This document shows, one piece after another, positions 2 through 34,179 of a DNA stretch of 40,691 bases. The translations under genes were made by a program, and so were the position numbers. The notes beneath the pieces are model-generated. The model was given only the letters and a program-made list of their open reading frames with translations, was not told the origin of the DNA and did no database searches. Source of the DNA: Chloroflexota bacterium (GTDB lineage: Bacteria > Chloroflexota > Dehalococcoidia > SZUA-161 > SpSt-899); assembly GCA_018657655.1 (NCBI GenBank), contig JABHWQ010000358.1:1-40691 (forward strand). Reading direction: 5' to 3'. Each line of letters begins with the position of its first letter. Positions within the stretch are counted from its first letter, which is position 1.

Positions 2-361
2 CAGGGATTCTGGGATGGAGTGAAGAACAGGAAACTGGTCTTCCAGCGATGCAAGGAATGCAGCACCTGGGTTCATCCCCAGAGACCTACCTGTCCCAAA
101 TGCAGGTCTCTGGAAAAAGAATGGGTTCCTTCCAGCGGAAAGGGGGCCGTTCATAGCTGGGTAGTCTACCGAGATGCGCCACACCCAGGGTTCATTGCGC
201 CGCATGTAGTGGTTCGGGTGGAACTGGAGGAAGGCGTGCGAATCATCAGCAACGTGGCAGAGGTGGAATTGGATGGAATTTACATTGGAATGCCGGTGGA
301 AGTAGTGTTCGAAAATGTGACCGAAGAACTCGCTCTTCCCAAATTCAAAAAGGCAGGTTAG
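2..361 (+). CDS. DUF35-type OB-fold / zinc-ribbon protein (acyl-CoA-associated); 5' end cut by window edge
   Basis: The frame is open back to base 2 (QGFWDGVKNRKLVFQRC...), so the GTG at 20 is probably internal. Two CxxC pairs (CKEC ... CPKC) are followed by an OB-fold-like segment. It lies directly upstream of the acyl-CoA dehydrogenases, 2 nt from the next start. Confidence 0.75.
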   Translation, partial: QGFWDGVKNRKLVFQRCKECSTWVHPQRPTCPKCRSLEKEWVPSSGKGAVHSWVVYRDAPHPGFIAPHVVVRVELEEGVRIISNVAEVELDGIYIGMPVEVVFENVTEELALPKFKKAG

Positions 362-363
362 AT

Positions 364-1491
364 ATGGACTTCTCACTCACTGAAGAACAGCAATTATTGA
401 AAAACTCGGCGCGCGATTTTCTGAATACGGAATGTCCGAAATCTGTGGTGAGGGAGCTGGAAGCTAGCGAATCCGGCCATTCCCCGGAACTTTGGAGGAA
501 GATGTCAGAGTTAGGGTGGATGGGGCTGCCACTGCCGGAGCAGTATGGCGGAGCAGAATTTAGCTTGTTGGACCTGGCGATTCTCTTTGAAGAGATAGGT
601 CGTGCAGCCATGCCCAGTCCCATGTTTAATAATGTGGTTCAGGGAGCACTGCCTATTCTTGATTGGGGAACAGAGGCCCAAAAGAGTTCGCTCTTGCCCA
701 AGGTGGCCAGCGGTGAAATGATCCTAACATTCGCGATGGCAGAACCTCAGGTAAATTACGATGCCAGATTTGTTGCCACCAAAGCTACACTTCAGGGTGA
801 TGGGTATTCGCTCTCCGGCACCAAGCTTTTTGTCTCTTATGCCCATATCTCGGACAAGATACTCACCGTAACCAGAACCAGTGGATCGCCTGGCGATGAA
901 AAAGGATTGACCGTCTTTATCGTCGATGCCAAAGCATCTGGTGTTACCGTGACTCAGCTTGAAAACATTGCTGCCGACAAAATATCCGAGGTTGTGTTGG
1001 ATGGAGTGTCAGTATCATCAAGCGATGTGCTGGGTAAGGTCGATGAGGGATTGGCAGTAGTTCAATCCATGCTGGCAAAGGCAGCTGCTATACGTTGTGC
1101 CGAAATGGTTGGCGGAGCACAGGTAGAGATCGAGATCACTGCCGACTATACCAAAACGAGACATCAATTCGATCGCCCTATTGGCACTTTTCAGGCTGTT
1201 CAACACAAGCTGGCTGATATGTTCATTGATGTTAATGGTGCACGCTGGGTTACCTATCAGGCGATATGGCGTCTAACTGAGGGACTGTCAGCGGAAAGGG
1301 AGTTGGCTATAGCCAAAGCCTTCACCGATATCGCTAGCCAACGGATAGCCCTTGGAGCTCAGCAATTGCATGCTGGCATCGGATTTGATAAGGACTACGA
1401 CATTCATTTCTACTACCGTCGTCAGAAGGCCTTCGATCTCAGGCTGGGTACCACTGCTGTTCATTTGGCAACACTTGCGGATCAAATTTGA
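364..1491 (+). CDS. acyl-CoA dehydrogenase family protein (atypical: no Glu at the canonical C-terminal catalytic position)
   Basis: 375 aa with ACAD-wide motifs (LPEQYGG, FQAVQHKLADM, C-terminal YYRRQKAFDLRLGTT). The Y-E-G-T position reads L-G-T. Confidence 0.9.
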   Translation: MDFSLTEEQQLLKNSARDFLNTECPKSVVRELEASESGHSPELWRKMSELGWMGLPLPEQYGGAEFSLLDLAILFEEIGRAAMPSPMFNNVVQGALPILDWGTEAQKSSLLPKVASGEMILTFAMAEPQVNYDARFVATKATLQGDGYSLSGTKLFVSYAHISDKILTVTRTSGSPGDEKGLTVFIVDAKASGVTVTQLENIAADKISEVVLDGVSVSSSDVLGKVDEGLAVVQSMLAKAAAIRCAEMVGGAQVEIEITADYTKTRHQFDRPIGTFQAVQHKLADMFIDVNGARWVTYQAIWRLTEGLSAERELAIAKAFTDIASQRIALGAQQLHAGIGFDKDYDIHFYYRRQKAFDLRLGTTAVHLATLADQI

Positions 1492-1523
1492 AGTTTTTCA
1501 GAACACCGGGTTTATCAATTCGC

Positions 1524-1559
1524 GTATCCCTCAACCATTAACGGTTGAGGGATACTTTT
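1524..1559 (+). terminator. rho-independent terminator after the first ACAD
   Basis: Perfect 13-bp stem: GTATCCCTCAACC (1524-1536) pairs with GGTTGAGGGATAC (1543-1555). The loop is 6 nt (ATTAAC) and the stem is followed by TTTT. Confidence 0.7.
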
Positions 1560-1675
1560 GTATGTTCGGTATATGCTCAAGTTAGTCAGCGTATTTCAAC
1601 CTCTCCCTTAGAATCTGCTATAATTATCCGGGTCTTAAAATCTCTACCAATACGATAAATTGAGGAGGTACAAAG

Positions 1676-2842
1676 ATGGATTTTGAATTACCCGAAGAAT
1701 TACGAATGCTGCGCAATATGGTTCGCGAATTCGCCGATGAGAAAATCGCCCCCTTCGCAGATGAATGGGACGAAAAACACTATGTCCCTTATGAAGAAGT
1801 AATCAAACCCATGGGTGAACTGGGCCTGTTCGGCACGGTGCTTCCGGAAGAATACGGTGGCAATGACATGGGTTGGCTGGCCGCCATGATTATCACTGAA
1901 GAGATAGCCCGAGCCTCCAGCGCTCTCCGCGTACAGATCAATATGGAGACTCTGGGTTGCGCTTTCACTATCTTTCGGTATGGGTCCGACGAACTCAAAC
2001 AAAAAGGCTATATCCAGAAACTTGTCTCCGCTGAATACATCGGCGGATTCGGTATCACCGAGCCGGAAGCCGGTTCTGACATGATGGCGATGAAGACTAC
2101 TGCTGTTGATAAGGGTGATCACTGGCTACTCAATGGCTCCAAGACCTGGATTTCCAACGCCAGCATCGCTGATGTGCTTATTTGCTATGCTTACACGGAC
2201 AGAGAGGCCAAGGGGAAGGGGCTTTCTGCTTTTATTATTGAGCCCAAAAACCATCCCGGTATTGCGACGAGTGACCTGGACAAGATGGGTACTCGTTCTA
2301 CCCCTACGGGAGAGGTGTTCCTGGAAGACGCCAAGATTCCCAAGGAGAACATTTTAGGCAAGCCGGGTGACGGTACCAAGATCGTTTTTAGTTCTCTTAA
2401 CCAGACCAGACTTTCGGCTGCGGCGGGTGGTATTGGTGTGGCCCAGGCGGCTTTGGATTCAGCTATTGCCTACTGTAAAGAGCGCAAGCAATTCGGCCAG
2501 TTTATCGGTGAGTATCAAATGAATCAGGATCTCATTGCACAGGTTGCCTGTGAGTTAGAGGCGGCGCGATATATGGTTTACAAAGCTGCGATACAGAAGG
2601 ACCAGGGCAATTTGGGGAATACTTATGAGGTAGCTGTGGCCAAATATCTCTCCGGCGAAATCGCCATGAAAGCCGCTCGCACCGCTATGAAGATTCTGGG
2701 CGCTTATGGTTATTCCACTGAATATCCGGTAGCCCGATACTATCGCGATGCGCCTCTTTATGAGATTGTTGAAGGATCATCCAATACCTGCAAGCGTATT
2801 GTGGCTATGGATTTACTCGATATTAGAAAAGCAAACAGGTAG
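1676..2842 (+). CDS. acyl-CoA dehydrogenase (short/medium-chain, butyryl-CoA dehydrogenase-like)
   Basis: 388 aa with a strong RBS (GAGGAGG) 7 nt upstream. Motifs: GFGITEPEAGSD, canonical C-terminal YYRDAPLYEIVEGSSN with the catalytic Glu, and QFGQFIGEYQMNQ. Confidence 0.93.
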   Translation: MDFELPEELRMLRNMVREFADEKIAPFADEWDEKHYVPYEEVIKPMGELGLFGTVLPEEYGGNDMGWLAAMIITEEIARASSALRVQINMETLGCAFTIFRYGSDELKQKGYIQKLVSAEYIGGFGITEPEAGSDMMAMKTTAVDKGDHWLLNGSKTWISNASIADVLICYAYTDREAKGKGLSAFIIEPKNHPGIATSDLDKMGTRSTPTGEVFLEDAKIPKENILGKPGDGTKIVFSSLNQTRLSAAAGGIGVAQAALDSAIAYCKERKQFGQFIGEYQMNQDLIAQVACELEAARYMVYKAAIQKDQGNLGNTYEVAVAKYLSGEIAMKAARTAMKILGAYGYSTEYPVARYYRDAPLYEIVEGSSNTCKRIVAMDLLDIRKANR

Positions 2843-2872
2843 TTCAAACACAATTCCTCAAATCGAGATTGT

Positions 2873-2901
2873 AAAAGGCCCGCTCATTGCGGGCCTTTTT
2901 T
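2873..2901 (+). terminator. rho-independent terminator ending the acyl-CoA locus
   Basis: AAAA-GGCCCGC (2877-2883), loop TCATT, GCGGGCC (2889-2895), then TTTTTT. This gives a perfect GC-rich 7-bp stem with A/T flanks. Confidence 0.8.
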
Positions 2902-3041
2902 ATGCTTTGGGGGGTTCTCCTCACTTTCCAGCTTCAAGACGATGATTATTTTATATATCTTCTCGATGAGGCCGAATTGAAGGCAATTGCCTGTTTCAAA
3001 ATTCCTGATGAATGTTTATGGGATTTTTATTCCAATTCATA

Positions 3042-3095
3042 GTACTAATGTACTATACTGTGTGTACTATGCTTCACTTAGCGTGTTAGGTGAAG
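3042..3095 (+). promoter_or_regulatory. candidate regulatory region upstream of the glycan island (GTACTA repeats plus hairpin)
   Basis: GTACTA occurs at 3042, 3050 and 3064, and TGTACTAT occurs twice 14 bp apart. A TATACT -10-like hexamer lies at 3054-3059. A 9-10 bp hairpin, CTTCACTTA...TTAGGTGAAG, spans 3072-3095. No convincing -35 element. Confidence 0.2.
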
Positions 3096-3152
3096 TGCTG
3101 GATGCCCGGTTTTGAAGGGGTGTTGAGGTTGACAGCCTCACGAAAAGCAGAA

Positions 3153-4946
3153 ATGATCGAGAAACGGACAGGTTGGGTGAAGATAGTTTGGTTTTTCCTC
3201 AAACCATATAAATACTATCTTCTTATCCTGTTGGGCCTCTGCTTGATCATTGGACTGCTGGAAACCCTACATATGGCATTGCTCTATCCCATTCTAAATG
3301 CCAGTTTGGAGAGTGGGGGGGTTGGAGACAACAATCTGTTTTTCAGGATTTTGAATGATGTAGCAGAAATCATTCCCGTTGATGATGTATTAGTATCAAG
3401 CTGTATTCTGTTCGTGATCCTCACTATTTTATATTCCGCTTCCCGACTACTCTACGCCAATCTCGCTCCTCGAGTTACGGCCAAAATTGTGAGAGAGTAC
3501 GAACAAGAAGTATTTCGGAAATATACAACATCGGACTATCGATTCTTTATCGATAATAGACAGGGAGATCTTATATATAGGGGATCGCAAGCTCCTCAAT
3601 TCATCGGCAATACAGTGATTGCCCTAGCCAGATCCGCAGTTGAGATCATCCTGGCAGTTTTTATATTGTTCTTGCTAGTTTCAATCTCATGGAAGGGTAC
3701 CATTGCCGTAGTACTGGCTGGAGCAGGGTACTACTATTTCACGCGATACTTGAGTAGCCGAATCTCGTATGTAACAGGCAAGGGAATGCGCCGAGCAATT
3801 GAGAATGAGAATGTGATCATGAATGAATACATCACCGGCGTCAAGCAAATACGCGCAACTCAGTCTTCGACCGAGTGGAGAAATAGATTCAACAAGGCAG
3901 CCACATCTAGATGGAAAAACTGGAGCAAGAACCAGTTTTGGAGTCAGGTTCCTGCTCGACTCCTTGAGCTCTTGATGTTTGGAACAATAGCCGTAATAGT
4001 CATCATAATAAAGGTGCAATACCCAGATCAGTTCTTCTCCATGATCCCCATGTTCGGTACGTTTGCATTCGCCGTATTTAAGCTATTGCCAAAGCTATCG
4101 GCTACAGGAACTACGCTGATGAACGTGGCGAACTGGATCCCAAATCTCGAATCAGTTCAGGAACTTCTCTCGGACAAAACCTATAGTCAAATCAAAAGCG
4201 GTACCACGAAGCTAACAAGATTCAAAAACAGTATCGAGTTCAAGGATGTAAGCTTCACCCACATAGGAAGGGCATCTACTCTGAACAATATTTCAAGTGG
4301 AATCAAAAAAGACAATATAACCGCAATAGCGGGATCATCCGGTTCCGGGAAGTCCACCATTGTGGATTTATTATTGCGCCTATATGATGTGGATGAAGGG
4401 CAAATACTAATAGATGGCATTAACATCAAAGATTACGATATATCCACATTTCTGGCTCAGGTTGGATTTGTAGGGCAAGAGACCTTCATCTTTAATGCAT
4501 CCATTCGTGACAATATAGCCTTTGGAGATGAGGCCTCTAATGATGAAATAATCGAGGCAGCTAGACTTGCAAATGCCCATGAATTCATCGAGCAGCTTCC
4601 GGAAGGATATGATACGATAGTAGGCGATCGAGGTTTGAGGCTTTCCGGCGGAGAAAAGCAGCGCATCGCTATTGCCAGAGCAATGGTGAGAAAGCCACAA
4701 ATACTCATACTGGATGAAGCCACAAGTTCGCTGGATAACGTCTCCGAAGCAATTGTACAAAAGGCGATTGACCGAGTGTCTGAAAGCTGTACTACCCTAG
4801 TGATCGCCCATCGGTTGTCAACCATTCGGAACGCCGACATAATATACGTTCTTGATAATGGGAAGATCGTTGAGAGCGGTACTCATGAGGAATTGATCAG
4901 CCAAAAAGGGAAGTACTGTGAACTATACAATAGGGAGGAAGCATAA
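3153..4946 (+). CDS. ABC transporter, fused permease/ATPase (type I exporter, MsbA/PglK-like; candidate glycolipid flippase/exporter)
   Basis: N-terminal multi-helix TMD, then Walker A GSSGSGKST, signature LSGGEKQR, Walker B ILILDEATS and H-loop VIAHRL. The ORF is open from GTG 3090, but that codon lies inside a hairpin. ATG 3153 (MIEKRTGWVKIVWFFLKPYKYY) gives a typical exporter N-terminus. Confidence 0.9.
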   Translation: MIEKRTGWVKIVWFFLKPYKYYLLILLGLCLIIGLLETLHMALLYPILNASLESGGVGDNNLFFRILNDVAEIIPVDDVLVSSCILFVILTILYSASRLLYANLAPRVTAKIVREYEQEVFRKYTTSDYRFFIDNRQGDLIYRGSQAPQFIGNTVIALARSAVEIILAVFILFLLVSISWKGTIAVVLAGAGYYYFTRYLSSRISYVTGKGMRRAIENENVIMNEYITGVKQIRATQSSTEWRNRFNKAATSRWKNWSKNQFWSQVPARLLELLMFGTIAVIVIIIKVQYPDQFFSMIPMFGTFAFAVFKLLPKLSATGTTLMNVANWIPNLESVQELLSDKTYSQIKSGTTKLTRFKNSIEFKDVSFTHIGRASTLNNISSGIKKDNITAIAGSSGSGKSTIVDLLLRLYDVDEGQILIDGINIKDYDISTFLAQVGFVGQETFIFNASIRDNIAFGDEASNDEIIEAARLANAHEFIEQLPEGYDTIVGDRGLRLSGGEKQRIAIARAMVRKPQILILDEATSSLDNVSEAIVQKAIDRVSESCTTLVIAHRLSTIRNADIIYVLDNGKIVESGTHEELISQKGKYCELYNREEA

Positions 4947-5538: not shown

Positions 5539-6519
5539 ATGAGAGATTTCTATAAAGGCAAGCATATTCTGATCACTGGCGGTGCAGGATATATAGGCCA
5601 GTTATTAATAGAGCAACTGATTGAATTCAACCCTGCAGTCATCAGAATCCTTGATGTCCATGAAAATGGTCTCTTCAATTTGCGCCAAAAATATCAGGAA
5701 ACAGCCGAGGACAAGGTCAGGTTCCTTCTGGGAGATATCCGCAATATAAACAGGTTACGCTATGCATTAAATGGTGTTGATATTGTTTTCCACACAGCAG
5801 CATATAAACATGTAGTTGAATGTGAATATAACCCGATAGATGCTGTGGAGACTAACATAAATGGTACCTCCAACGTTATTCAAGCTGCTCTAGAGAGCAA
5901 TGTGGAAAGGGTCATTTTTACAAGTTCAGACAAAGCTGCAAACCCCTCAAACTCAATGGGAGCAACCAAGTTGCTTGCTGAAAAACTGATGATTGCTGCA
6001 AATGGTTACAGAGGTACGCATGGTACCATATTCGCCTGCTGTAGATTCGGGAATGTTGTACGTTCCAGCGGTTCAGTTGTCCCCTTATTCGAAGATCAAA
6101 TAAAACAAGGTAAGAGCATAACTCTGACAGATCCCAATATGACTCGATTTCTAATATCAAATAGCAAGGCCATTGAGCTGGTTTTAAGATCAGCGATGCT
6201 GGCTCATGGAGGAGAAGTTTTCATTTTTAAGATGCCATCGATAAACATAGGTGATCTTGCGAATGTAATGATGGAAAAATACGGAACAGTCCCAAAAGAG
6301 ATAATTGGTAAAAAAGCTGGCGAAAAAATGTATGAAGAGCTAATGACTGAAGAGGAGAAATCGAGAACGTTTGAAAACGAAGAAATGTATGTTATATCCC
6401 CTACAATAGCAGATAGCAAACATGTTAGTTATGAAGGATTTACCAAGGTAGCAGAAATCAATAATTCACGGGACGCAGATCGTATGAGCAAAGATGAAAT
6501 ACTGAGGTTAATCGAATGA
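5539..6519 (+). CDS. UDP-N-acetylglucosamine 4,6-dehydratase, PseB/CapD (FlaA1) family
   Basis: 326 aa. Motifs: GKHILITGGAGYIG, SSDKAANPSNSMGATKLLAEKL (Y/M-x3-K region), and RFGNVVRSSGSVVPLFEDQI...LTDPNMTRF, which is typical of the short CapD/PseB dehydratases. RBS GAGGA upstream. Confidence 0.85.
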   Translation: MRDFYKGKHILITGGAGYIGQLLIEQLIEFNPAVIRILDVHENGLFNLRQKYQETAEDKVRFLLGDIRNINRLRYALNGVDIVFHTAAYKHVVECEYNPIDAVETNINGTSNVIQAALESNVERVIFTSSDKAANPSNSMGATKLLAEKLMIAANGYRGTHGTIFACCRFGNVVRSSGSVVPLFEDQIKQGKSITLTDPNMTRFLISNSKAIELVLRSAMLAHGGEVFIFKMPSINIGDLANVMMEKYGTVPKEIIGKKAGEKMYEELMTEEEKSRTFENEEMYVISPTIADSKHVSYEGFTKVAEINNSRDADRMSKDEILRLIE

Positions 6520-7454
6520 ATGTTCTTGTGACCGGAGGAGCAGGTTTCATTGGGCGATGGGTTGTTAAAAAACTCCTGTCAGAAAACGTTAATGTCTGGG
6601 TATTAGACAACCTTTCGAACGGCAGTGAACAGAATTTGGTGGAATTTGATCAAATTAACAACTATCAAGGACTCACCATTGGAGATATCTCGGACATTTC
6701 ATGTGTTGAACGGGTATTCAAGACTCAGTTTGACGTATGCATCCATACAGCTGCGCAAATCAATGTTCAGGAAAGCCTAGACAATCCGCATAAGTCCTTC
6801 CGTGTCAACATGGTCGGCACCTACAATGTCCTCAGCTGTGCGCTAAAATCCAAGACCAAGGTTATACTCATCGGGACTTGCATGGTGTATGATATGGCCA
6901 CATCAGATGGGATATCGGAACTCTCATCAGTTAAACCTGCATCACCTTACTCAGGTTCCAAATTGGCTGCTGAAGAACTGGCCCTCTCCTATTACTATGG
7001 ATTTGGGCTCCCAGTCACTGTCTTGAGACCGTTCAATACCTATGGGCCTTTTCAGAAAACAAACATGGAAGGTGGCGTTGTTTCCATTTTTGTTCAGAAC
7101 CATATCGCTGGGGAAAACCTAAAAGTGTTTGGTGATGGAACACAAACCAGAGATCTGCTTTACGTGGAGGATTGCGCTGAATTCATTGTTCGAGCAGCAT
7201 TCTCTGAAAACTCTGCCGGAGAAGTGATCAACGCAGGAACCGGCAGAGATATCTCAATCAATGATCTTGCATTGCTAATTTGCAGGGACCTCAATAGAAT
7301 AGAGCACGTCAAACACCACCATCCTCAAAGTGAGATTCAGAAACTATTAGGCAGCTTTTCCAAAGCACAAAAGCTTTTGGGATGGAAACCAAAAACTCCG
7401 CTAGAAGAAGGCATTGCCAAAACTGAGCAATGGATAAAAACAGATTACTCATAA
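6516..7454 (+). CDS. NAD-dependent epimerase/dehydratase (extended SDR, GalE/RmlB-like)
   Basis: 312 aa. Motifs: VLVTGGAGFIG and the catalytic YSGSKLAAE. ATGA start/stop overlap with the upstream gene. Confidence 0.85.
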   Translation: MNVLVTGGAGFIGRWVVKKLLSENVNVWVLDNLSNGSEQNLVEFDQINNYQGLTIGDISDISCVERVFKTQFDVCIHTAAQINVQESLDNPHKSFRVNMVGTYNVLSCALKSKTKVILIGTCMVYDMATSDGISELSSVKPASPYSGSKLAAEELALSYYYGFGLPVTVLRPFNTYGPFQKTNMEGGVVSIFVQNHIAGENLKVFGDGTQTRDLLYVEDCAEFIVRAAFSENSAGEVINAGTGRDISINDLALLICRDLNRIEHVKHHHPQSEIQKLLGSFSKAQKLLGWKPKTPLEEGIAKTEQWIKTDYS

Positions 7455-9583
7455 CTGGTGGCAGTGGGCTATTGGGAAGCAATATTGCCCGGTCAGCGAT
7501 TCGTGAATTCGATGCCTACGCTACCTACAAGGATCATGAATCGCAGATTCCCGGATGTCATTTCTTACACATGGATATACTGGATCGAAAGGAGGTCTTT
7601 TCGACTATCAAATCGATCAGACCCAATCTGGTTATTCACACGGCAGGGCTAGTGAACGTCGACTATTGCGAGCAACACCCTAGTGAAGCTTGGGAAGCTA
7701 ACGTAAATGGTACTGTCAACGTCGTAGAGGCATGCCGCGAAGTTGATGCCAAGATGATCTATATATCCACCAACGCCGTATTTGATGGGGCGCGAGGAAT
7801 GTATTGCGAAGAGGACCGTCCTCACGTTCTAAGTGTATATGCTAAGACTAAACTGGAAGGTGAGATAAGAGTTCAACGTTGGTTACCTGAAAGTATAGTT
7901 GTTAGAACCGCCTTTTATGGTTGGAGCTTGCACAACAGGAACACTCTGGCTGAATGGGTTCTGAAAAATTTGAGACATGGGAAGACAATCAAGATGTTTA
8001 CCGATGCCTTTTTTTCTCCGGTACTAGCCAGTAATCTGGCTGAGGCGCTGATCGAGATGTATCGCCAAGGACTCACTGGGACATACCATGTCGATGGCAG
8101 TGAGAGGTGTAGCAAGTATGAGTTCGGGCGAGCAATTGCGCGAATCTTCAAACTGGATGAAAGCAATATCGAGGCTTCCTCGATCTCAGAATCTGGACTC
8201 GTAGCCCCCAGACCGAGGGACATTTCTCTGGATATTAGCAAAGTGTCGAAGGCCATAAGCACCAGTCTGCTTGGAGTGGAGGATGGCATAGCGTGGTTCA
8301 AGTCACTGGAAAATAGTCTTGGGGAAAGAGCAAAGGGAAAACCGATTCAGTCGCCCATGCAGGCGAAGGGTTTCATACAGTATGGGAGGCAGTGGATTGA
8401 TGACGAAGACATCCGCGCAGTGGTTGAAGTGCTCAGAAGCGAGGTAATCACGCAAGGGCCAAAGGTAGAGGAATTCGAGAAAGCGATAGCAGACTATTGC
8501 GAGACGAAATACGCGGTAGCTGTCAACTCCGGAACCTCCGCCCTCCATATTGCATGTCTGGCTTCTGGCATAAAAGAAGGCGATGAGGCGATCACCACAC
8601 CGATAACTTTTGTAGCGTCAGCCAACTGTGCCGCGTACTGTGGGGCAAAGCCCGTTTTTGCGGACATAAATAAACAAACGTACAATATTTCACCAAATGA
8701 GATGGGAAAAAAGATTACGCCGCAGACGCGGATAGTTATTCCTGTGCACTTTGCCGGTCAAAGTTGTGATATGGAAATCATCCATGATATTGTTAGGAAA
8801 GCAGAAGAGGAATATGGCCATAAGATTTTCATCCTGGAAGATGCCTGTCATGCTCTGGGCTCGTTGTACAAAGGGGAAAGGGTCGGCGGATGTCGATTCT
8901 CTGATATGGTCGTGATGAGCTTTCATCCGGTCAAACATGTTACCTCCGGTGAGGGGGGAATCGTGTTGACTAATGATGAGAGCTTGTATAAAAAGCTAAA
9001 GCTCTTTCGATCTCATGGCATCACAAGTGATCCAGATGAATTCGTGAACACTGCACTTGCCTTCGGATCTTCGGGGGATGAGTCCAATCCGATAGTAAAT
9101 CCATGGTACTACGAACAGTTGTTCCTTGGTCACAACTATCGGATTACGGATATCCAGTGCGCGCTGGGCCTCTCCCAGTTGAGAAAGCTAGACAGCTTTC
9201 AAAGACGAAGAAAGGAAATCGTCCACAGATACAACCAAGCCTTTCAAAATATCAAACATCTACAAGTACCTGTGGAATCGGTTAACTGCGAAAGTAATCT
9301 TCATCTGTACGTACTCCGCATTGATTTCACGAGTCTCGGTATTGATCGCGCTCGATTCATGCTCGATCTCAAAGACAAAGGCATACAGACACAGGTACAC
9401 TATATCCCCGTACACCTGCAACCGTTCTATAAAAATAGTTATGGAACTAACTGGGGCGATTGCCCCAACGCCGAACATTATTATGAGGAATGCCTTTCAA
9501 TTCCATTGTACCCAGCCATGACCGACCTCGATATTCATAGGGTAATCACAGAAATACAAACCGCTGTGGAAGGATCAACATGA
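7430..9583 (+). CDS. bifunctional fusion: RmlD-like 4-ketoreductase domain (aa ~1-295) plus PseC-type DegT/DnrJ/EryC1 aminotransferase domain (aa ~313-717)
   Basis: Single uninterrupted 717-aa ORF. N-terminal domain: LLITGGSGLLG, VIHTAGLVNVDYCEQHPSEAWEANVNG, ISTNAVFDG and YAKTKLEGE, matching the RmlD substrate-binding-domain pattern. A linker follows (LGERAKGKPIQSPMQAKG). C-terminal domain: FIQYGRQWIDDEDI...ITQGPKVEEFE, NSGTSALH, and MSFHPVKHVTSGEGG with the PLP lysine. Confidence 0.85.
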   Translation: MDKNRLLITGGSGLLGSNIARSAIREFDAYATYKDHESQIPGCHFLHMDILDRKEVFSTIKSIRPNLVIHTAGLVNVDYCEQHPSEAWEANVNGTVNVVEACREVDAKMIYISTNAVFDGARGMYCEEDRPHVLSVYAKTKLEGEIRVQRWLPESIVVRTAFYGWSLHNRNTLAEWVLKNLRHGKTIKMFTDAFFSPVLASNLAEALIEMYRQGLTGTYHVDGSERCSKYEFGRAIARIFKLDESNIEASSISESGLVAPRPRDISLDISKVSKAISTSLLGVEDGIAWFKSLENSLGERAKGKPIQSPMQAKGFIQYGRQWIDDEDIRAVVEVLRSEVITQGPKVEEFEKAIADYCETKYAVAVNSGTSALHIACLASGIKEGDEAITTPITFVASANCAAYCGAKPVFADINKQTYNISPNEMGKKITPQTRIVIPVHFAGQSCDMEIIHDIVRKAEEEYGHKIFILEDACHALGSLYKGERVGGCRFSDMVVMSFHPVKHVTSGEGGIVLTNDESLYKKLKLFRSHGITSDPDEFVNTALAFGSSGDESNPIVNPWYYEQLFLGHNYRITDIQCALGLSQLRKLDSFQRRRKEIVHRYNQAFQNIKHLQVPVESVNCESNLHLYVLRIDFTSLGIDRARFMLDLKDKGIQTQVHYIPVHLQPFYKNSYGTNWGDCPNAEHYYEECLSIPLYPAMTDLDIHRVITEIQTAVEGST

Positions 9584-10896
9584 ACTTAACAAAAAGCCTA
9601 GCGATGCAGGAACGGGCAAAGCGGCGAATTCCCGGTATGACTCAATTGCTATCGAAACGTCCGGATATGTTTTCTTCCGGGGTATGGCCCGGCTACTACA
9701 GCAAAGCGAAAGGTGTGGAGGTGTGGGACCTCGACGGTAACCGTTACATAGACATGAGTATCGGCGGGATCGGAGCCAATATTCTTGGGTATGCAGACCC
9801 TGACGTAGACGAAGCGGTGCACGCAGTTATAAAAAATGGAACAAGCAGTTCTTTGAATTGCCCCGAGGAAGTTGAACTGGCTGACATGCTCTGTGAGATT
9901 CATCCATGGGCTGAAATGGTTCGTTTTGCTCGCTCAGGCGGGGAATCCATGGCGATGGCAGTAAGAATTGCGCGTGCCTATACAGGAAAAGACAAGATCG
10001 CATTTTGCGGATATCATGGTTGGCATGACTGGTACCTATCAGCAAACCTGGGGACCGAGAACGCTTTAGGAGAGCATCTCCTGCCCGGTCTAAGCCCGGT
10101 TGGGGTTCCAAAAGGTCTTACCGGTACAGCTCTTCCGTTCAGATATAATCACATAGATGAGCTTGAAGCTATTGTGAGAGGCAACAAGGATGATTTAGCA
10201 GCTATTGTAATGGAACCGATTCGCAGCGAAAAACCGCAGGCAGCATTTCTTGAAGGAGCTCGTGCCTTAGCCGATGCAAGCAAAGCTGTTCTGATTATCG
10301 ACGAGATATCCGCTGGATTCAGGATGAACTCAGGCGGCGCTCATCTATTATTTAACCTGACTCCAGATATGGCCGTCTTCTCAAAAGCTTTGGGGAACGG
10401 ATACCCGATTGCAGCGATAATTGGCAGAAGTCATATAATGGAGTCGGCACAGAGTTCTTTCATTAGCAGCACAATGTGGACCGAACGTGTTGGGCCAACT
10501 GCGGCGCTGGCGACTATTAAGAAACACCAATCATTTGATGTTGGGAGTCATTTGATATCTATCGGGCAACTGGCACAGGAAGGCTGGCGACGGCTGGCGA
10601 CCAGGAATGATTTAAATATCCATATAGCGGGAATAGCTCCCGCAAGCCATTTCAATTTTGATTATGAAAATGCCATGTCTATGAAGGCTCTCTTCATTCA
10701 ATTTATGCTTGAAAGAGGGTTCCTGGCTTCAAATCTGTTTTATGTCATGTTCGCGCATCAAACCCAGCATGTCGACTCGTATTTACAGGCTGTTGATGAG
10801 GTTTTTTCACTTATAGCAGAGGCAAACAAGGACGGGACTGTGGAGAAGAGGTTGAAAGGTGAGCCGTCCATTTCCGGTTTCAAGAGGTTAGCCTAG
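9580..10896 (+). CDS. class-III PLP aminotransferase, glutamate-1-semialdehyde aminomutase (HemL)-like
   Basis: 438 aa. Motifs: GYHGWHDWY, IIDEISAGFR, and FSKALGNGYPIAA with the PLP lysine. ATGA overlap with the upstream gene. Confidence 0.8.
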   Translation: MNLTKSLAMQERAKRRIPGMTQLLSKRPDMFSSGVWPGYYSKAKGVEVWDLDGNRYIDMSIGGIGANILGYADPDVDEAVHAVIKNGTSSSLNCPEEVELADMLCEIHPWAEMVRFARSGGESMAMAVRIARAYTGKDKIAFCGYHGWHDWYLSANLGTENALGEHLLPGLSPVGVPKGLTGTALPFRYNHIDELEAIVRGNKDDLAAIVMEPIRSEKPQAAFLEGARALADASKAVLIIDEISAGFRMNSGGAHLLFNLTPDMAVFSKALGNGYPIAAIIGRSHIMESAQSSFISSTMWTERVGPTAALATIKKHQSFDVGSHLISIGQLAQEGWRRLATRNDLNIHIAGIAPASHFNFDYENAMSMKALFIQFMLERGFLASNLFYVMFAHQTQHVDSYLQAVDEVFSLIAEANKDGTVEKRLKGEPSISGFKRLA

Positions 10897-10911
10897 TTTG
10901 AGGGGACAGCC

Positions 10912-11805
10912 TTGCACGATATTCCGCTCGTTTTGGGAACTGTACAACTTGGAGTTTCGTACGGGGTAGCCAATAAAACTGGTTGTCCTGATCAATCAAG
11001 TGCGATTTCCATTGTACGTGAGGCGTGGGAAAATGGAATTCGCGAATTCGATACAGCACAAGGGTATGGGAAAAGTGAACGTGTCTTAGGCCAAGCTCTG
11101 GAGGTATTGGGATTTGCTCACGAGGCCAGAATTGTCACCAAATTTGACCCTAATCTGGATCACTTGGATGATAGAATCATGGCTAGCGCTTTGGACAAGT
11201 CCTTGGGCAATCTTGGCCAATCGAGTCTATATGCTATGATGCTGCACCGAGAGGATTTACTTTCTATATGGGATTGCGGATTGTCCGACGTGTTGGGAGG
11301 CTTTGTAGCTAGAGGAAAGATTGAGAAAGTGGGATTTTCAGTTTACTCACCAGATAAAGCGCTTGAAGCGTTAAACACTGATGGCGTAGATATTGTACAG
11401 CTTCCAACGAACGTTCTGGATCGACGATTTGAAACCGCTGGCGTTTTTCAACTGGCAATGGAAAAGCAGAAGATAGTGTATATCCGAAGCGTGTTTCTTC
11501 AGGGTTTAATCTTGATGGAGGAGGAAGAGATTCCGGAAAGAATGGCTTTCGCGAAGCCTTTCATTCGCAGATTTGAGTCCCTGTCAAAGGAGTTGGGATT
11601 TACTCGTCGCGAATTGGCATTGGGATACATAAAGCATGGATTTCCTGGCACAAAGTTGGTATTTGGCGCTGAGCTCTCCGGACAGGTGCGAGCCAACTGC
11701 TCAAGCTGGGAAAAGGAAATCCCTGCCTCATTAGTTCCTCTCATAAGGGAAAACTTCACAGATGTCGATCATCGAGTCCTGAATCCAAGTCTGTGGTCGA
11801 AATAA
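10912..11805 (+). CDS. aldo/keto reductase family oxidoreductase
   Basis: 297 aa with a TTG start preceded by GAGGGGA. Motifs: LGTVQLG and FDTAQGYGKSERVLGQAL (AKR Asp/Tyr region). Confidence 0.8.
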   Translation: MHDIPLVLGTVQLGVSYGVANKTGCPDQSSAISIVREAWENGIREFDTAQGYGKSERVLGQALEVLGFAHEARIVTKFDPNLDHLDDRIMASALDKSLGNLGQSSLYAMMLHREDLLSIWDCGLSDVLGGFVARGKIEKVGFSVYSPDKALEALNTDGVDIVQLPTNVLDRRFETAGVFQLAMEKQKIVYIRSVFLQGLILMEEEEIPERMAFAKPFIRRFESLSKELGFTRRELALGYIKHGFPGTKLVFGAELSGQVRANCSSWEKEIPASLVPLIRENFTDVDHRVLNPSLWSK

Positions 11806-11806
11806 T

Positions 11807-12574
11807 ATGATTGCCGCCATCATTCAAGCCCGCATGACGTCGAATCGGCTGCCTGGCAAGGTAATGAAGCAAGTAATGGGGAAACCTCTGCTGGGCTATT
11901 TGGTCGAACGGCTTCGGGCTTGCAGCCATCTCGATAACGTTATCATCGCCACAACAGTGAACGCTGAAGACGATGTAATCGCAAATTATGCCAACCAGGA
12001 AAAGATGCTTGTTTGCAGGGGATCCGAACACGATGTGCTATCAAGATATTATGAAAGTGCGAAGGAATTCGGTGTTGATCATATAGCAAGAATCACCTCC
12101 GATTGCCCTCTAAGTGATCCTGCGATTGTTGATAGAACCATCAAAACGTATCTGGAAGGCAAATACGACTATGTTCATTTAGCGCCTTCTTTTGCAGAAG
12201 GGCTCGATACGGAGATTTTCTCGCTGGCGGCTCTGGAGATTGCACATGGGAAGGCACGCCTGCGTTCTGAGAGGGAGCACGTTACACTCTATTTTTACAA
12301 CAATCCCGGGGCATTCAGAAAACTGGTGATAGAGAACGAAACTGACGATGGACACTATAGAATAACGGTAGACGAACCAGAGGACTTTGAAGTTGTTAAG
12401 GCTGTGATTGAAGCGCTATATGAAAAAGATTCCATTCCCTTTAGTTTTGGAACCATAAAATCCTTCCTGGATGATCATCCGGAAATACTCCGGAAGAATT
12501 CACACATAATCAGAAATGAAGGACTGCAGATATCTTTGATCAATGATGGGTTTATAGAAGACGATGAACGTTAG
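11807..12574 (+). CDS. cytidylyltransferase, SpsF / acylneuraminate-cytidylyltransferase-like (candidate CMP-nonulosonate synthetase)
   Basis: 255 aa. Motifs: MIAAIIQARMTSNRLPGKVM...GKPLL and RITSDCPLSDP, characteristic of the SpsF/CTP_transf_3 type. Confidence 0.8.
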   Translation: MIAAIIQARMTSNRLPGKVMKQVMGKPLLGYLVERLRACSHLDNVIIATTVNAEDDVIANYANQEKMLVCRGSEHDVLSRYYESAKEFGVDHIARITSDCPLSDPAIVDRTIKTYLEGKYDYVHLAPSFAEGLDTEIFSLAALEIAHGKARLRSEREHVTLYFYNNPGAFRKLVIENETDDGHYRITVDEPEDFEVVKAVIEALYEKDSIPFSFGTIKSFLDDHPEILRKNSHIIRNEGLQISLINDGFIEDDER

Positions 12575-12673
12575 TAAGGATTCTGTGTAGTTGCTATATC
12601 GGAAACTGCCAACACAAATCAATTATATCATTAGAAACACTATTGAAAGACATAATTCTCGGATAGTACATGA

Positions 12674-12702
12674 TTTACAATTGGCTGTTCCACAGATAAA
12701 TG
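12674..12702 (+). promoter_or_regulatory. weak sigma70-like promoter candidate in the 147-bp gap before the PseG-like gene
   Basis: TTTACA (12674-12679), 17-nt spacer, TAAATG (12697-12702). The leader would be very short and the taxon is unknown, so support is weak. Confidence 0.15.
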
Positions 12703-12721
12703 TTTTTCCGGTGAATGTAAA

Positions 12722-13834
12722 ATGTGTTTAGACCAAGAAGCGCCAAGTTTCAAATCCGTTATCCGCACATCCAGCACAATTTTGGTCAGAGTGGATGGTG
12801 CTCACCATTTGGGAATGGGACATGTGATCAGGTGTATTGCGCTCTGTTCTGCAATGAGACAGTGCGGAATTGGCGTCACATTTGTTATTCGAGACTATGA
12901 TGACAGAATCAGCAATCTGATTCGCACCCATGCATTTGATGTTGAGTTAGTAGACAGTCAAATCAGTCTCAAGGATGATGCAAGCCGCACGGCTGCTATT
13001 GCAGAAAAGCTCGGCGTGGATTGCATTCTGACCGACTTGAGTCACAGTGACAATCACTCACGGCTATCTGAGTATTATTCATTCTATGACATACTTCTTG
13101 AGTCCAATAGACATGTAGTTGTTGTTGATGATATTGAGAAAATTGACTTGCCGTTTGATGTCCAGATAATCCCATATTATGAGACAGAGCATCTGGATTA
13201 CATTCGGTTTGACAAGACGAAATATCTCTTGGGATGCTCCTATTTCATCGTTTCAGAGAAATTGGCTCGAGCAGCCAATTCGACCCGGGTCATAAGGCCA
13301 ATTGGAACGAGAGTTCTTGTTTCAATTGGAGGAAGTGATCCTACCAAGATGACGCCATTGGTAGCTAATGCAATTGCCAGATTGAGCCGTCCTGAAATGG
13401 AAGTGAAATTTATCTGTTGGGAAGGATTTTCCAGCGATGCCGCTCATCAAATTGAAGCTGCCATGCAGAATTACGATGGCGTATATGAATTGTGTTCAAG
13501 CCAAGATATCTCAGAATTCATGTTATGGTGCGATATTCTAGTATCTGCCGGAGGTTTAACGAAATATGAGGCTGCACTTACTGGAACACCGGATATCATC
13601 ATTTCGGGATCGGACCTTGAGATGAAGCGTGCAGATAGATTCGCCCAATCTGGTTGTGCATTCCATATCGGACACCAGGCAAATGTACATGCTGATGAAC
13701 TTTCAGAAATAATAGAACTGTTATCGGCAAACCACGATACACGGTTATCAATGTCTAACAGGGGGAAAGCTATGATTGATGGCAAAGGCACCGAAAGAAT
13801 CATAAACCAATTACCCGTGAGTTTGCCACAATGA
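12722..13834 (+). CDS. pseG: UDP-2,4-diacetamido-2,4,6-trideoxy-hexose hydrolase, PseG/SpsG family (GT-B-like)
   Basis: 370 aa. The N-terminus ILVRVDGAHHLGMGHVIRCIALCSAM matches the PseG/SpsG signature (R-x-D-x4-G-x-GH-x-x-RC). The C-terminal half has GGSDPT and SAGGLTKYEA. Confidence 0.75.
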   Translation: MCLDQEAPSFKSVIRTSSTILVRVDGAHHLGMGHVIRCIALCSAMRQCGIGVTFVIRDYDDRISNLIRTHAFDVELVDSQISLKDDASRTAAIAEKLGVDCILTDLSHSDNHSRLSEYYSFYDILLESNRHVVVVDDIEKIDLPFDVQIIPYYETEHLDYIRFDKTKYLLGCSYFIVSEKLARAANSTRVIRPIGTRVLVSIGGSDPTKMTPLVANAIARLSRPEMEVKFICWEGFSSDAAHQIEAAMQNYDGVYELCSSQDISEFMLWCDILVSAGGLTKYEAALTGTPDIIISGSDLEMKRADRFAQSGCAFHIGHQANVHADELSEIIELLSANHDTRLSMSNRGKAMIDGKGTERIINQLPVSLPQ

Positions 13835-14856
13835 AAGTCAACATCAAATTGGGAGATCGAATGGTCGGTGATGGAGAACCGACTCTCGTTATTGCCGAAA
13901 TCGGTTCAAATCACAATCAGAAGCTCTCACAAGCAAAGCAACTTATAGATGCCGCCGCCAAAGCCGGAGTTGATGCAGTCAAGTTCCAATTGTTCAAAGC
14001 TGAAGTATTGTACCCCAATAGGGATACCTACTATGACATAATGAAAGCCAATGAACTACCTCGGGAATGGGTAACAGAACTCGCAACTTACGCTAAACAA
14101 CACAATCTGCTATTTATGGCCAGCCCATTTGACTATGAAGCCATTGATATTCTCGATGAATTGGAAACTCCGGCATTGAAACTGGCCTCATCTGAAGCTG
14201 TGAACTGGCCCTTGGTACAATATGCTGCATCGAAAAAGCGCCCATTGATTGTCTCTACGGGCATGTGTGATTTGGCCGATGTATCTCAATTGGTTGAACT
14301 GGTTCGGAATACAGCGAATAACGAAGATGTCATTTTGCTTCAATGCACCGCACTGTATCCTCCAGAGCCGCGGCAAGTGAACTTGCGGGCTATGGAGACG
14401 ATGAGAAATGCTTTTCATTTGCTAATAGGCTTTTCTGACCATACACCTGGTATAACAATATCAGTGGCAGCTGTGGCAAGGGGAGCATGTATTATAGAAA
14501 AACACCTTACGTTGAATCGTGGAATGGAAGGGCCTGATCACGCATATGCACTTGAACCTGACGAGATGGGTACGTTGGTTAAGTCAATACGTACAGTAGA
14601 AGCAAGCCTCGGCTCACCAGTGAAAGATATGTTAACATCGGAAAGGTCCGTAGCAAGGAGAGAAAGCGTAACCGCAACGATTGACATTCCAAAATCCACA
14701 AAAATTACCCGAGACATGCTTGTCTGCAGTCGACCAGCTATCGGGATCAAACCTAAGTTTGTTGAAGCGGTAATCGGAAGTTCAAGCAACCAAGATATCA
14801 ACGCGGGCCAAGCCCTCACGTGGGATATGCTGAATGTGCGCTCGCGAGGAGATTGA
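13831..14856 (+). CDS. nonulosonic acid synthase, NeuB/PseI/LegI family (PEP-dependent condensing enzyme)
   Basis: 341 aa. Motifs: GEPTLVIAEIGSNHNQKLSQAKQLIDAAAKAGVDAVKFQ, FSDHTPG, IEKHLT, and a C-terminal SAF/antifreeze-like domain. ATGA overlap with the upstream gene. Confidence 0.9.
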   Translation: MKVNIKLGDRMVGDGEPTLVIAEIGSNHNQKLSQAKQLIDAAAKAGVDAVKFQLFKAEVLYPNRDTYYDIMKANELPREWVTELATYAKQHNLLFMASPFDYEAIDILDELETPALKLASSEAVNWPLVQYAASKKRPLIVSTGMCDLADVSQLVELVRNTANNEDVILLQCTALYPPEPRQVNLRAMETMRNAFHLLIGFSDHTPGITISVAAVARGACIIEKHLTLNRGMEGPDHAYALEPDEMGTLVKSIRTVEASLGSPVKDMLTSERSVARRESVTATIDIPKSTKITRDMLVCSRPAIGIKPKFVEAVIGSSSNQDINAGQALTWDMLNVRSRGD

Positions 14857-29760: not shown

Positions 29761-30360
29761 GTGTCCTACGTTAGTGAATATTTGGATGAAGTCAAGAAAG
29801 TTGTCGATGGAATAGACCAGTCCGTGATAGATAAGATGGTCGATCTGCTTGTCGGTATTAGAGAGAGCGGAGGTCGCCTTTTCTTTCTTGGAGTAGGTGG
29901 TGGCGCGGGTAATGCATCCCACGCTGTCAATGACTTTCGCAAAATCGCGGGAATTGAATCCTACTCACCGAGCGATAATGTCTCTGAGCTAACTGCACGG
30001 ACAAACGATGACGGGTGGGACACGGTATTTGTGGAATGGCTCAAAGGTTCCAGGCTCAATCAGAAAGACGGGGTATTCGTCTTCTCTGTTGGTGGTGGAG
30101 ATGCAGAACGAAACATCAGTGCAAACCTGGTTCGTGCGCTAGAATATGCCCAAACTAAGGGGTCGAGAATAATGGGCATCGTTGGTCGTGACGGTGGGTA
30201 TGCCGGCAAGATAGGAGATGCATGCCTGATTATACCAACAGTCAACCCAAATACAATAACCACTCATACTGAAGCCTTCCAGAGTGTTATCTGGCATCTG
30301 GTAGTGTCTCATCCGAAGGTACAGGTTTCAGAAATGAAGTGGGAATCAACGACGGAGTGA
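29761..30360 (+). CDS. SIS-domain sugar-phosphate isomerase, GmhA-like (single domain, no CBS)
   Basis: 199 aa with a GTG start after a strong RBS (GGGAGGGAG). Motifs: GGRLFFLGVGGGAGNASHAVNDF, VFSVGGG, RIMGIVGRDGG. Confidence 0.75.
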   Translation: MSYVSEYLDEVKKVVDGIDQSVIDKMVDLLVGIRESGGRLFFLGVGGGAGNASHAVNDFRKIAGIESYSPSDNVSELTARTNDDGWDTVFVEWLKGSRLNQKDGVFVFSVGGGDAERNISANLVRALEYAQTKGSRIMGIVGRDGGYAGKIGDACLIIPTVNPNTITTHTEAFQSVIWHLVVSHPKVQVSEMKWESTTE

Positions 30361-30364
30361 GCAA

Positions 30365-31048
30365 ATGCCGATTTTCTTAGATACCGGGAATATTAGTGAT
30401 ATTGAGAAATACCTTAAGATGGGGATCATCCGAGGCGTAACCACAAACCCTACCATTCTGCTCCAGGCTGGTGTTACTGGTGGAATGAAAGGGATCAAGG
30501 AAAGATCGGTGGAAATCGCCAACCTGGTTGATCCTTACCCCCTTTCAGTGGAAGTGACAACGAATGATCCTAAGATGATGTTGGAGCAGGCACAAGAGTT
30601 TGCAGGGTGGGCCAAGAACATCAATGTAAAAATAACGATCCACGGACCGAAGGGTGAACTAGACAATCTGGAAATCGTGCATGAATTGGAAAACAAGCAT
30701 GATATTCGCGTCAATGTGACTGCGATGATGAGTGCTCAACAGTGTCTTCTGGCTGCGATGGCGGGCGCTACGTATGTATCATTATTTGGTGGACGGGTGA
30801 ATAACATGGGCTACAACTCCTGTGAAGAAATCAGAAAACTCCGCACGGTCCTTGATGATTTCTCATTGGATGCTAGTATTATTATCGGTTCCACGCGCGA
30901 GGTGCTTAATATCATAGAGTGGCTTGAAGCTGGTGCGCATTTGGTAACCGTAGTTCCCAAATTACTTGAGGGAATGATCGTTCACCCTTACAGTAAAGAG
31001 ACTGTACAGATGTTCCTGGATGACGCTGCCAAAACTGAGAAGGCATAG
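30365..31048 (+). CDS. fructose-6-phosphate aldolase / transaldolase subfamily 3B (FSA/TalC-like, class I aldolase)
   Basis: 227 aa. Motifs: MPIFLDTGNISDIEKY...IRGVTTNPTIL, NINVKIT (Schiff-base Lys region), VNVTAMMS and YVSLFGGR. Confidence 0.85.
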   Translation: MPIFLDTGNISDIEKYLKMGIIRGVTTNPTILLQAGVTGGMKGIKERSVEIANLVDPYPLSVEVTTNDPKMMLEQAQEFAGWAKNINVKITIHGPKGELDNLEIVHELENKHDIRVNVTAMMSAQQCLLAAMAGATYVSLFGGRVNNMGYNSCEEIRKLRTVLDDFSLDASIIIGSTREVLNIIEWLEAGAHLVTVVPKLLEGMIVHPYSKETVQMFLDDAAKTEKA

Positions 31049-31056
31049 CATTAACT

Positions 31057-32511: not shown

Positions 32512-32539
32512 TTCGTAGGCCGGATAGGGTATATACGGA

Positions 32540-33319: not shown

Positions 33320-33392
33320 AACATTTGAAGCGCCATTTGGACATTATTCATTTCATTCCAATCAGAAAACATATCAACTGAAGGTCATTATA

Positions 33393-34160: not shown

Positions 34161-34179
34161 ACTGTTAAGATTAAAGCCT

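Follow-up and report, generated by a model that had tools for sequence, protein, structure and literature searches.

Nonulosonic acids (NulOs), pseudaminic acid among them, occur as decorations on flagella, capsules, S-layers and extracellular polymers, and we know of no described pathway to them that has a reductase at the 4-keto node. The characterised aminotransferases PseC of Helicobacter pylori (HP0366, PDB 2fnu) and Pam of Bacillus thuringiensis are single-domain proteins of about 375-390 amino acids (aa), with a pyridoxal phosphate (PLP) lysine in the motif SFHPVK, a dehydratase gene before them and genes for a PseG-like protein, NeuB and a cytidylyltransferase nearby. Here we describe a relative that has these features and in which a short-chain dehydrogenase/reductase (SDR) of about 300 aa is fused N-terminally to the aminotransferase. 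It is encoded by one open reading frame (ORF) of 717 aa at 7430-9583 on the + strand of a 40,691-nucleotide stretch from a Chloroflexota bacterium (assembly GCA_018657655.1, contig JABHWQ010000358.1, positions 1 to 40,691; hereafter the window). We propose, with moderate confidence, that the fused protein is a bifunctional branch-point enzyme acting on UDP-4-keto-6-deoxy-L-AltNAc (UDP-2-acetamido-2,6-dideoxy-beta-L-arabino-hexos-4-ulose) in a pathway to NulOs of the pseudaminic acid type.

The supply of this keto-sugar resembles the Pen/Pal route of B. thuringiensis (PDB 6bwc, 6bwl), in which, as far as Li et al. 2015 is recounted in PMC5109656 and PMC8987622, Pen and Pal jointly make UDP-4-keto-6-deoxy-L-AltNAc, the substrate of PseC. 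The window keeps the order pen, pal, aminotransferase; a third SDR is absent from the B. thuringiensis operon, whereas the window and one of two types of homologous locus (type B; types A and B are told apart below by domain identity) have an RmlD-like domain that follows Pal and precedes the aminotransferase. The initial annotation had named a single upstream dehydratase as the supplier. Instead we found two genes on the + strand, one for a Pen-like UDP-N-acetylglucosamine (UDP-GlcNAc) dehydratase (5539-6519; Polysacc_synt_2, PF02719, 318 bits) and one for a second SDR, a Pal orthologue (6516-7454) that matches PDB 6bwl, 'Pal', end to end (E 6.7e-114, 384 bits). In the PDB the former is matched best by Pen (6bwc, 269 bits) and less well by FlaA1/PseB (2gn4, 231 bits), and it lies under the PseB equivalog cut-off (307.9 vs 407.75 bits). 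By homology the pair would convert UDP-GlcNAc to the keto-sugar. The order Pen, Pal, fusion is common to the window and the type-B loci, and the pair is also found in loci L003, L005, L089, L090 and L096; type-A loci have a single upstream dehydratase, a true PseB (487.7 bits against the same cut-off). In both types the N-terminal (N) domain comes directly after the enzyme or enzymes making the 4-keto sugar, and a gene for PseB/Pen or Pal immediately precedes 19 of 23 fusions and 32 of 63 standalone genes of the same reductase family. We also considered the N domain as a substitute for Pal, to which it has a weak match (E 1.6e-6), and rejected this since type-A loci, having a true PseB, need no Pal, and type-B loci and the window keep Pal besides.

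Two further systems offer a comparison. RmlD and the WbvR-like reductases of L-RhaNAc/L-QuiNAc routes share with the N domain the fold and Pfam family, the catalytic triad, the Rossmann motif and a position after a PseB/FnlA-family 4,6-dehydratase. The comparison with WbvR is by described function. Among the standalone relatives of the N domain the genomic link is with NeuB and not with O-antigen 2-epimerases. In the ArnA/ArnB system, too, an SDR domain shares a polypeptide with a second enzyme of its pathway and acts around a DegT-family aminotransferase. In ArnA, however, the aminotransferase is separate and the fused partners (a formyltransferase and the UDP-GlcA decarboxylating SDR) act on either side of it, whereas here the aminotransferase is itself fused and the SDR is a predicted reductase. 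We found no description in the literature of the fusion, of a NulO route combining PseB with a 4-reductase or of a natural 7-hydroxy-9-deoxy NulO, and a Foldseek search of the PDB returned no solved structure with the SDR-PseC architecture, in line with the initial annotation, which knew of no characterised enzyme built in this way.

No internal stop interrupts the ORF at 7430-9583, and Pfam places RmlD_sub_bind (PF04321, 188 bits) at aa 5-280 and DegT_DnrJ_EryC1 (PF01041, 398 bits) at aa 323-709. Together with the NCBIfam scores and conserved active sites given below, this bears out the initial annotation, which had read one uninterrupted 717-aa frame as a complete RmlD-like SDR fused to a complete PseC; the motifs it quoted are all found in the translation. 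The N-terminal extended-SDR domain (7430-8320, + strand like all parts of the ORF; aa 1-297) belongs to clade B of the RmlD-like 4-ketoreductase family. It carries the NAD(P)-binding Rossmann motif GGSGLLG (7457-7477, aa 10-16), which is conserved in both clades, the motifs STNAVFDG (aa 113-120) and YAKTK (aa 137-141), and the SDR triad (7766-7852) of S113 (7766-7768), Y137 (7838-7840) and K141 (7850-7852). The C-terminal (C) PseC domain (UDP-4-amino-4,6-dideoxy-N-acetyl-beta-L-altrosamine transaminase; 8366-9583, aa 313-717 plus stop) carries YGRQ (aa 318-321), ITQGP (aa 340-344) and SFHPVKH (aa 497-503), the last with the PLP lysine K502 (8933-8935). Between the two lies a flexible linker (8321-8365, aa 298-312, GERAKGKPIQSPMQA), rich in K, P and Q as first noted and with no consensus of 60% or more in either clade. 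Starting at ATG 7430 the ORF overlaps the end of the preceding Pal gene, stop included, by 25 nt, and a database copy of the protein (P0001) has 703 aa, which fits a start at TTG, codon 15. We regard ATG 7430 as the better start because the TTG would remove most of the Rossmann motif; the TTG may have been called to avoid the overlap.

The most trivial explanations would be an assembly or frameshift artefact, or a genuine RmlD of rhamnose synthesis merely fused to PseC, and even taken together we find these extremely improbable. Concerning the first, positions 7300-9700 show 0 differences and 0 gaps against 30-35 kb contigs of three independent seawater metagenomes, the domain junction lies inside a 270-nt metatranscriptome contig (8174-8443), and more than 120 homologue clusters share the fused architecture. 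The junction (8300-8375), which the initial annotation had singled out as the point of doubt, is thus intact in three identical assemblies and one RNA contig, with no frameshift or missed stop, and an artefact was ruled out. An AlphaFold2 model of the fused protein built on 61 homologues contains two well-folded domains (mean predicted local distance difference test, pLDDT, 86.8; N domain mostly >90), and aa 298-312 form the only long low-confidence stretch between them (pLDDT <50). Its predicted template modelling score (pTM) of 0.56 gives no confident interdomain packing or interface, and in the model the domains appear as independent globular units on a flexible tether. In Foldseek against the PDB the C domain alone was matched, with ArnB as the top structural match, together with perosamine synthase and PseC (TMt 0.87-0.89, TMq at most 0.48).

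The assignment of the C domain to PseC is strongly supported by every feature that could be checked. The PseC equivalog model TIGR03588 matches aa 316-711 with 493.6 bits, above its cut-off of 423.5, and the fused relatives P0068 (498.8 bits) and P0097 (486 bits) also exceed it, so that the C domain is PseC in both clades. It has the DegT/AAT type I fold and its PLP lysine, K502 in SFHPVKH, is invariant in 61 sequences. Genes for the Pen-like dehydratase, Pal, the fusion, a CTP_transf_3 protein, a PseG-like protein and NeuB all lie within 5539-14856, an operon context typical of PseC. Transamination is predicted from these features.

The N domain has the extended-SDR fold with a GxxGxxG motif and an S/T-Y-K triad. 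In an alignment of 61 fused homologues from both clades G16, S113, Y137 and K141, like K502, are invariant, and conservation of G10, S12 and G13 reaches at least 90%; in an alignment of 34 standalone relatives with the N domain of the window, the triad is invariant too. The best PDB sequence match is 2ggs (E 1e-36). A genuine RmlD would be favoured by the Pfam match to RmlD_sub_bind, by rmlD (TIGR01214) being the best SDR-type NCBIfam model and by the IMG family name, 'UDP-4-amino-4,6-dideoxy-N-acetyl-beta-L-altrosamine transaminase/dTDP-4-dehydrorhamnose reductase'. Yet the TIGR01214 score is 189.2 bits against a cut-off of 224.05, and every tested relative (161-208 bits) falls below it as well; rmlA, rmlB and rmlC (NTP_transferase, dTDP-glucose dehydratase, dTDP_sugar_isom) were not detected among the window ORFs scanned; and the STDYVFDG motif of RmlD-type proteins such as 2ggs reads STNAVFDG in the window, which fits a substrate other than dTDP-4-dehydrorhamnose. 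The clade consensus at this site is ISTDsVFDG or ISTD.VYDG. A true RmlD was rejected on these three counts, and we infer that the N domain is a 4-ketoreductase of the RmlD/WbvR type, though not RmlD. Alternatively the N domain could be non-catalytic, an NAD(P)(H)-binding scaffold or regulator of PseC in the manner of the RmlD-fold subunit MAT2B. MAT2B is indeed among its best PDB sequence matches (E about 6e-26), the score lies under the RmlD equivalog cut-off, and the window has N115/A116 in place of the D-S of the clade consensus and the D-Y of true RmlD. We think this highly unlikely, as S113, Y137, K141 and the Rossmann glycines are invariant at N-domain identities of 32-39% and in standalone proteins, the AlphaFold2 model has no confident interdomain interface, and standalone members of the family occupy hundreds of clusters.

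These standalone RmlD-like relatives are 40-74% identical. The dehydratases encoded ahead of them pass the PseB cut-off (501.2 and 492.8 bits against 407.75), and NeuB follows immediately in 26 of 63 non-edge cases and is encoded somewhere in the locus in 44 of 76. A common cassette consists of PseB, RmlD-like, NeuB, GT4-like, GFO/IDH/MocA and CTP_transf_3 genes followed by a DegT-like or class-III aminotransferase. Shorter cassettes exist: L127 has PseB, CTP_transf_3, RmlD-like, NeuB and GT4-like genes, L109 is similar and L125 has one methyltransferase in addition, and no aminotransferase or acetyltransferase was seen in the available sequence of these three. A glycan locus (L092/L093) pairs PseB with the reductase, NeuB and PseC not being seen in the 17.7 kb fetched, and in L086 a 50-aa DegT/PseC remnant (7744-7896) lies between PseB and the standalone RmlD-like gene, which looks like aminotransferase decay while the reductase route was kept. 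The GT4-like gene (Glycos_transf_1) adjoins NeuB in many standalone cassettes (L085, L087, L088, L063, L116, L118, L120, L129, L130, L139 and others) and is nearly mutually exclusive with PseG (24 loci vs 2), suggesting that it is probably a UDP-sugar hydrolase; judged by sequence and gene neighbourhood it may be a non-homologous replacement of PseG.

The simplest reading of these cassettes is that the standalone SDR reduces the PseB product at C4, and that the resulting UDP-6-deoxy-HexNAc would be a glycosyl donor or, once hydrolysed, a NeuB substrate for a 7-hydroxy-9-deoxy NulO. Canonical Pse clusters have PseC without a reductase; since PseC can work without the reductase and the reductase, it seems, without PseC, the two appear as parallel outlets of one node. 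A different view is that the N domain acts as a clean-up reductase, removing off-pathway 4-keto sugars such as UDP-4-keto-6-deoxy-D-GlcNAc to UDP-QuiNAc/FucNAc-type sugars and so averting a labile keto pool beside PseC. PseB-type enzymes slowly form a C5-epimerised by-product, and such a role would suit an N domain with conserved catalytic residues that is tethered to PseC directly after the dehydratase. It sits poorly with the tight linkage of standalone members to NeuB, the immediate neighbour in the 26 cases above, and with cassettes in which the reductase appears to be the sole route from PseB to NeuB; both argue for a biosynthetic and not a salvage role, and we hold clean-up to be quite improbable.

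In the branch-point reading that we favour, the C domain would transaminate the keto-sugar at C4 to UDP-4-amino-4,6-dideoxy-L-AltNAc, from which an acetyltransferase, the PseG-like hydrolase, NeuB and the cytidylyltransferase would lead to a CMP-Pse derivative. The N domain, going by its family, triad and gene context, would be an NAD(P)H-dependent 4-ketoreductase converting the same keto-sugar to a UDP-2-acetamido-2,6-dideoxy-L-hexose, either 6-deoxy-L-AltNAc or its C4 epimer. This reduced sugar may serve directly as a glycosyl donor or may be hydrolysed, condensed by NeuB and CMP-activated to a 5-acetamido-7-hydroxy-9-deoxy NulO. The fusion would fix a 1:1 dose of two enzymes competing for one labile intermediate and so create the branch point. 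More tentatively we suggest an undescribed and widespread second branch, in which the keto-sugar of PseB or Pal would be reduced rather than aminated and would pass through a hydrolase (PseG-like or GT4-like), NeuB and the cytidylyltransferase to a CMP-5-acetamido-7-hydroxy-9-deoxy NulO. In many loci the latter might then be oxidised (GFO or aldo/keto reductase, AKR) and transaminated (class-III or DegT-like) at the CMP-sugar stage, leaving a free amine for diverse acylation, and repeated, independent fusion to PseC would set the product split.

The genes following the fusion, all on the + strand, bear on this proposal. Directly downstream is a class-III (GSA-aminomutase-like) aminotransferase (9580-10896; PF00202), the most constant neighbour of the fusion, whose PDB matches are only GSAM (166 bits) and sugar C-6' aminotransferases. 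It is followed by its usual partner, an AKR (10912-11805; PF00248), replaced by GFO/IDH/MocA in other loci and without a match at E 1e-12 in a PDB sequence search. Then come a CTP_transf_3 cytidylyltransferase (11807-12574; PF02348, 108.7 bits) in the PseF position of canonical clusters, with a probable PseF-type role, a PseG-like UDP-sugar hydrolase (12722-13834; TIGR03590, 131 bits, below the cut-off of 153.55) and a NeuB-family nonulosonic acid synthase (13831-14856; PF03102, 266 bits; NeuB_NnaB 333.6 and PseI 292.5, both below cut-offs). We compared 13 fused loci of at least 12 kb with 50 unfused ones. The class-III aminotransferase is present in all 13 and in 14 of the 50 (Fisher p = 2e-6, in a sample that is not phylogenetically independent), and an AKR or GFO partner in 11 of the 13; across 22 fused loci the aminotransferase is the immediate downstream gene in 13. 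Two NeuB genes are found in 4 of the 13 fused loci and in none of the 50 unfused, which fits two routes in one locus.

Several of these observations weigh against a branch point. The class-III aminotransferase with AKR or GFO is the strongest statistical partner of the fusion, and the branch model leaves this link unexplained; the comparison behind it suffers from the non-independence just mentioned, and about half of the loci with the class-III aminotransferase (14) lack any RmlD-like gene. The window and most type-A loci have one NeuB and one hydrolase near the fusion, so that a second NulO would depend on promiscuity of the enzymes further down. Joining two competitors in one protein is unusual; it is more often the steps of a single route that are fused. 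The exchange at N115/A116 described above also counts here. The reading given in the initial annotation is thus supported in part: its branch-point proposal gains real weight from the context of the standalone relatives, whose genes directly follow a true PseB and precede NeuB with no aminotransferase seen in the cassette; the activity of the reductase, its substrate and stereochemistry and the nature and fate of its product are read from family and gene context.

The initial annotation had offered as an alternative that the reductase was recruited for a different step, and the partner genes give this some weight. The N domain would then act in the same pathway but reduce a later keto group, for instance on a free or CMP-linked NulO after oxidation by AKR or GFO, to give a C4 or C8 epimer or a late tailoring alongside the class-III aminotransferase; as in ArnA, non-adjacent steps of one route would be joined. 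The constancy of the class-III aminotransferase and of AKR/GFO in fused loci speaks for it, as do the standalone cassettes that also contain GFO and a DegT-like or class-III aminotransferase and the single NeuB of most fused loci. Moreover, single stop-free ORFs join CTP_transf_3 to the class-III aminotransferase, AKR or GFO in L009 (8691+), L021 (13128+), L102 (7012+), L104 (7009+), L108 (7359+), L110 (2+), L120 (6661+) and L144 (155+), and the L110 ORF appears to hold all three of GFO, CTP_transf_3 and aminotransferase. Such fusions suggest an oxidation and transamination module acting around the CMP-NulO stage; one possibility is that the module oxidises and transaminates the NulO of the reductase branch late. 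Against a later step for the N domain, its gene lies directly after the dehydratase in both fused and standalone forms, away from the late enzymes; no aminotransferase, AKR or GFO was detected in the fetched sequence of L127, L109, L125 and L092/L093; the chemistry of the family is reduction of NDP-4-keto-6-deoxyhexoses; and the 14 loci mentioned above have the aminotransferase module without an RmlD-like gene. On balance we regard a later step as somewhat unlikely and keep to the branch point at the 4-keto sugar.

A trio of methyltransferase, metallophosphoesterase and PylC-like ATP-grasp ligase genes recurs near fusions (L002 15351-17018, L009, L010, L027, L089, L090, L134); its products may modify a free amine of the nonulosonate with an amino-acyl or other group.

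From an evolutionary point of view the SDR-PseC architecture is not rare but common in metagenomes. The best 120 homologue clusters at the 90% identity level are all 677-757 aa long and all have both Pfam domains, and their annotated members belong to Desulfobacteraceae, Nitrospirae, Ca. Scalindua and Chloroflexota. A library clustered at 50% identity contains about 25 representatives of 680-720 aa that match the query over the whole length, in some cases with no more than 30-40% identity; six further fragments cross the junction, and we collected 24 unique fused loci. The many end-to-end homologues and their low identities indicate an old, diverse architecture that is frequent in uncultured bacteria, and the same fusion, looked for elsewhere, was found across many phyla. 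The tblastn scan of genome contigs yielded real fusions only in L005-L011 and L017. Its many 'full-length' matches in cultured Bacillales and Clostridia proved at the ORF level to be separate Pen/PseB or Pal genes beside a standalone PseC, which tblastn had run together owing to the cross-matching of SDRs. The window sequence occurs in seawater and marine metagenomes; among named relatives, the closest fusion gene is that of a Chloroflexota metagenome-assembled genome (L005). PseC domains also occur at either end of other proteins of 500-780 aa (P0382, P0412, P0428, P0503, P0510 and others), suggesting fusion to further partners.

Per-domain identity to the window protein is bimodal among the best 120 clusters. 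Most homologues are of type A, with N domains 32-39% and C domains 62-69% identical, and 12 of the 120 are of type B (57-81% and 47-49%). The window protein is itself a mosaic: its N domain is nearest to type-B fusions (81% to P0003), its C domain to type-A fusions and standalone PseCs, and the lineage switch is located at the linker, which suggests that recombination at the linker made the mosaic. P0002 is a like mosaic of type-B N domain (58%) and type-A C domain (72%), and its locus, L089, shares the window's flanking genes for acyl-CoA dehydrogenases and an ABC exporter. This flank (window 20-4946, L089 1-6787) encodes ChsH2-like OB-fold proteins, two acyl-CoA dehydrogenases and an MsbA/HepA-like ABC exporter, with thiolases accompanying the OB-fold proteins in L089. 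A p-distance tree by the unweighted pair group method with arithmetic mean (UPGMA) splits the N domains into two clades, both with fused as well as standalone members, and in each the standalone proteins of about 300 aa roughly equal or outnumber the fused ones (identity up to 63% in clade B and 74% in clade A). Fitch counting on this tree, a crude procedure, gives up to 35 changes of fusion state. The standalone PseC genes L012-L016 are as near to the window C domain as type-A fused ones, and L152 and L161 have an unfused RmlD-like gene followed by PseC in the same order. The mixed clades, the close standalone PseCs and the unfused pairs point to repeated fusion, fission or linker recombination, and such recurrence speaks for the two activities being functionally linked.

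Elsewhere in the window (29761-35873) lies a second acid-sugar module with an SIS isomerase, a transaldolase/FSA-type aldolase, an HpcH/HpaI aldolase, an HAD phosphatase, two classical SDRs, a second CTP_transf_3 of more canonical type (34180-34953) and a D-2-hydroxyacid dehydrogenase, which together recall a pathway to Kdo-like or other ulosonic acids with an unusual aldolase.

The annotated hits span Chloroflexota, Thermodesulfobacteriota, Nitrospirae, Planctomycetes including Ca. Scalindua, Omnitrophota and Ca. Uhrbacteria. Proteins of this kind are at present named plain PseC or RmlD, and an assay result would improve their annotation. The enzyme is open to direct assay, since its substrates are all accessible through known Pse enzymes. 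Taken together, the fusion and the hundreds of standalone relatives encoded between PseB and NeuB point to a reductive route in many uncultured phyla, probably leading to a new 7-hydroxy or late-aminated class of NulO.

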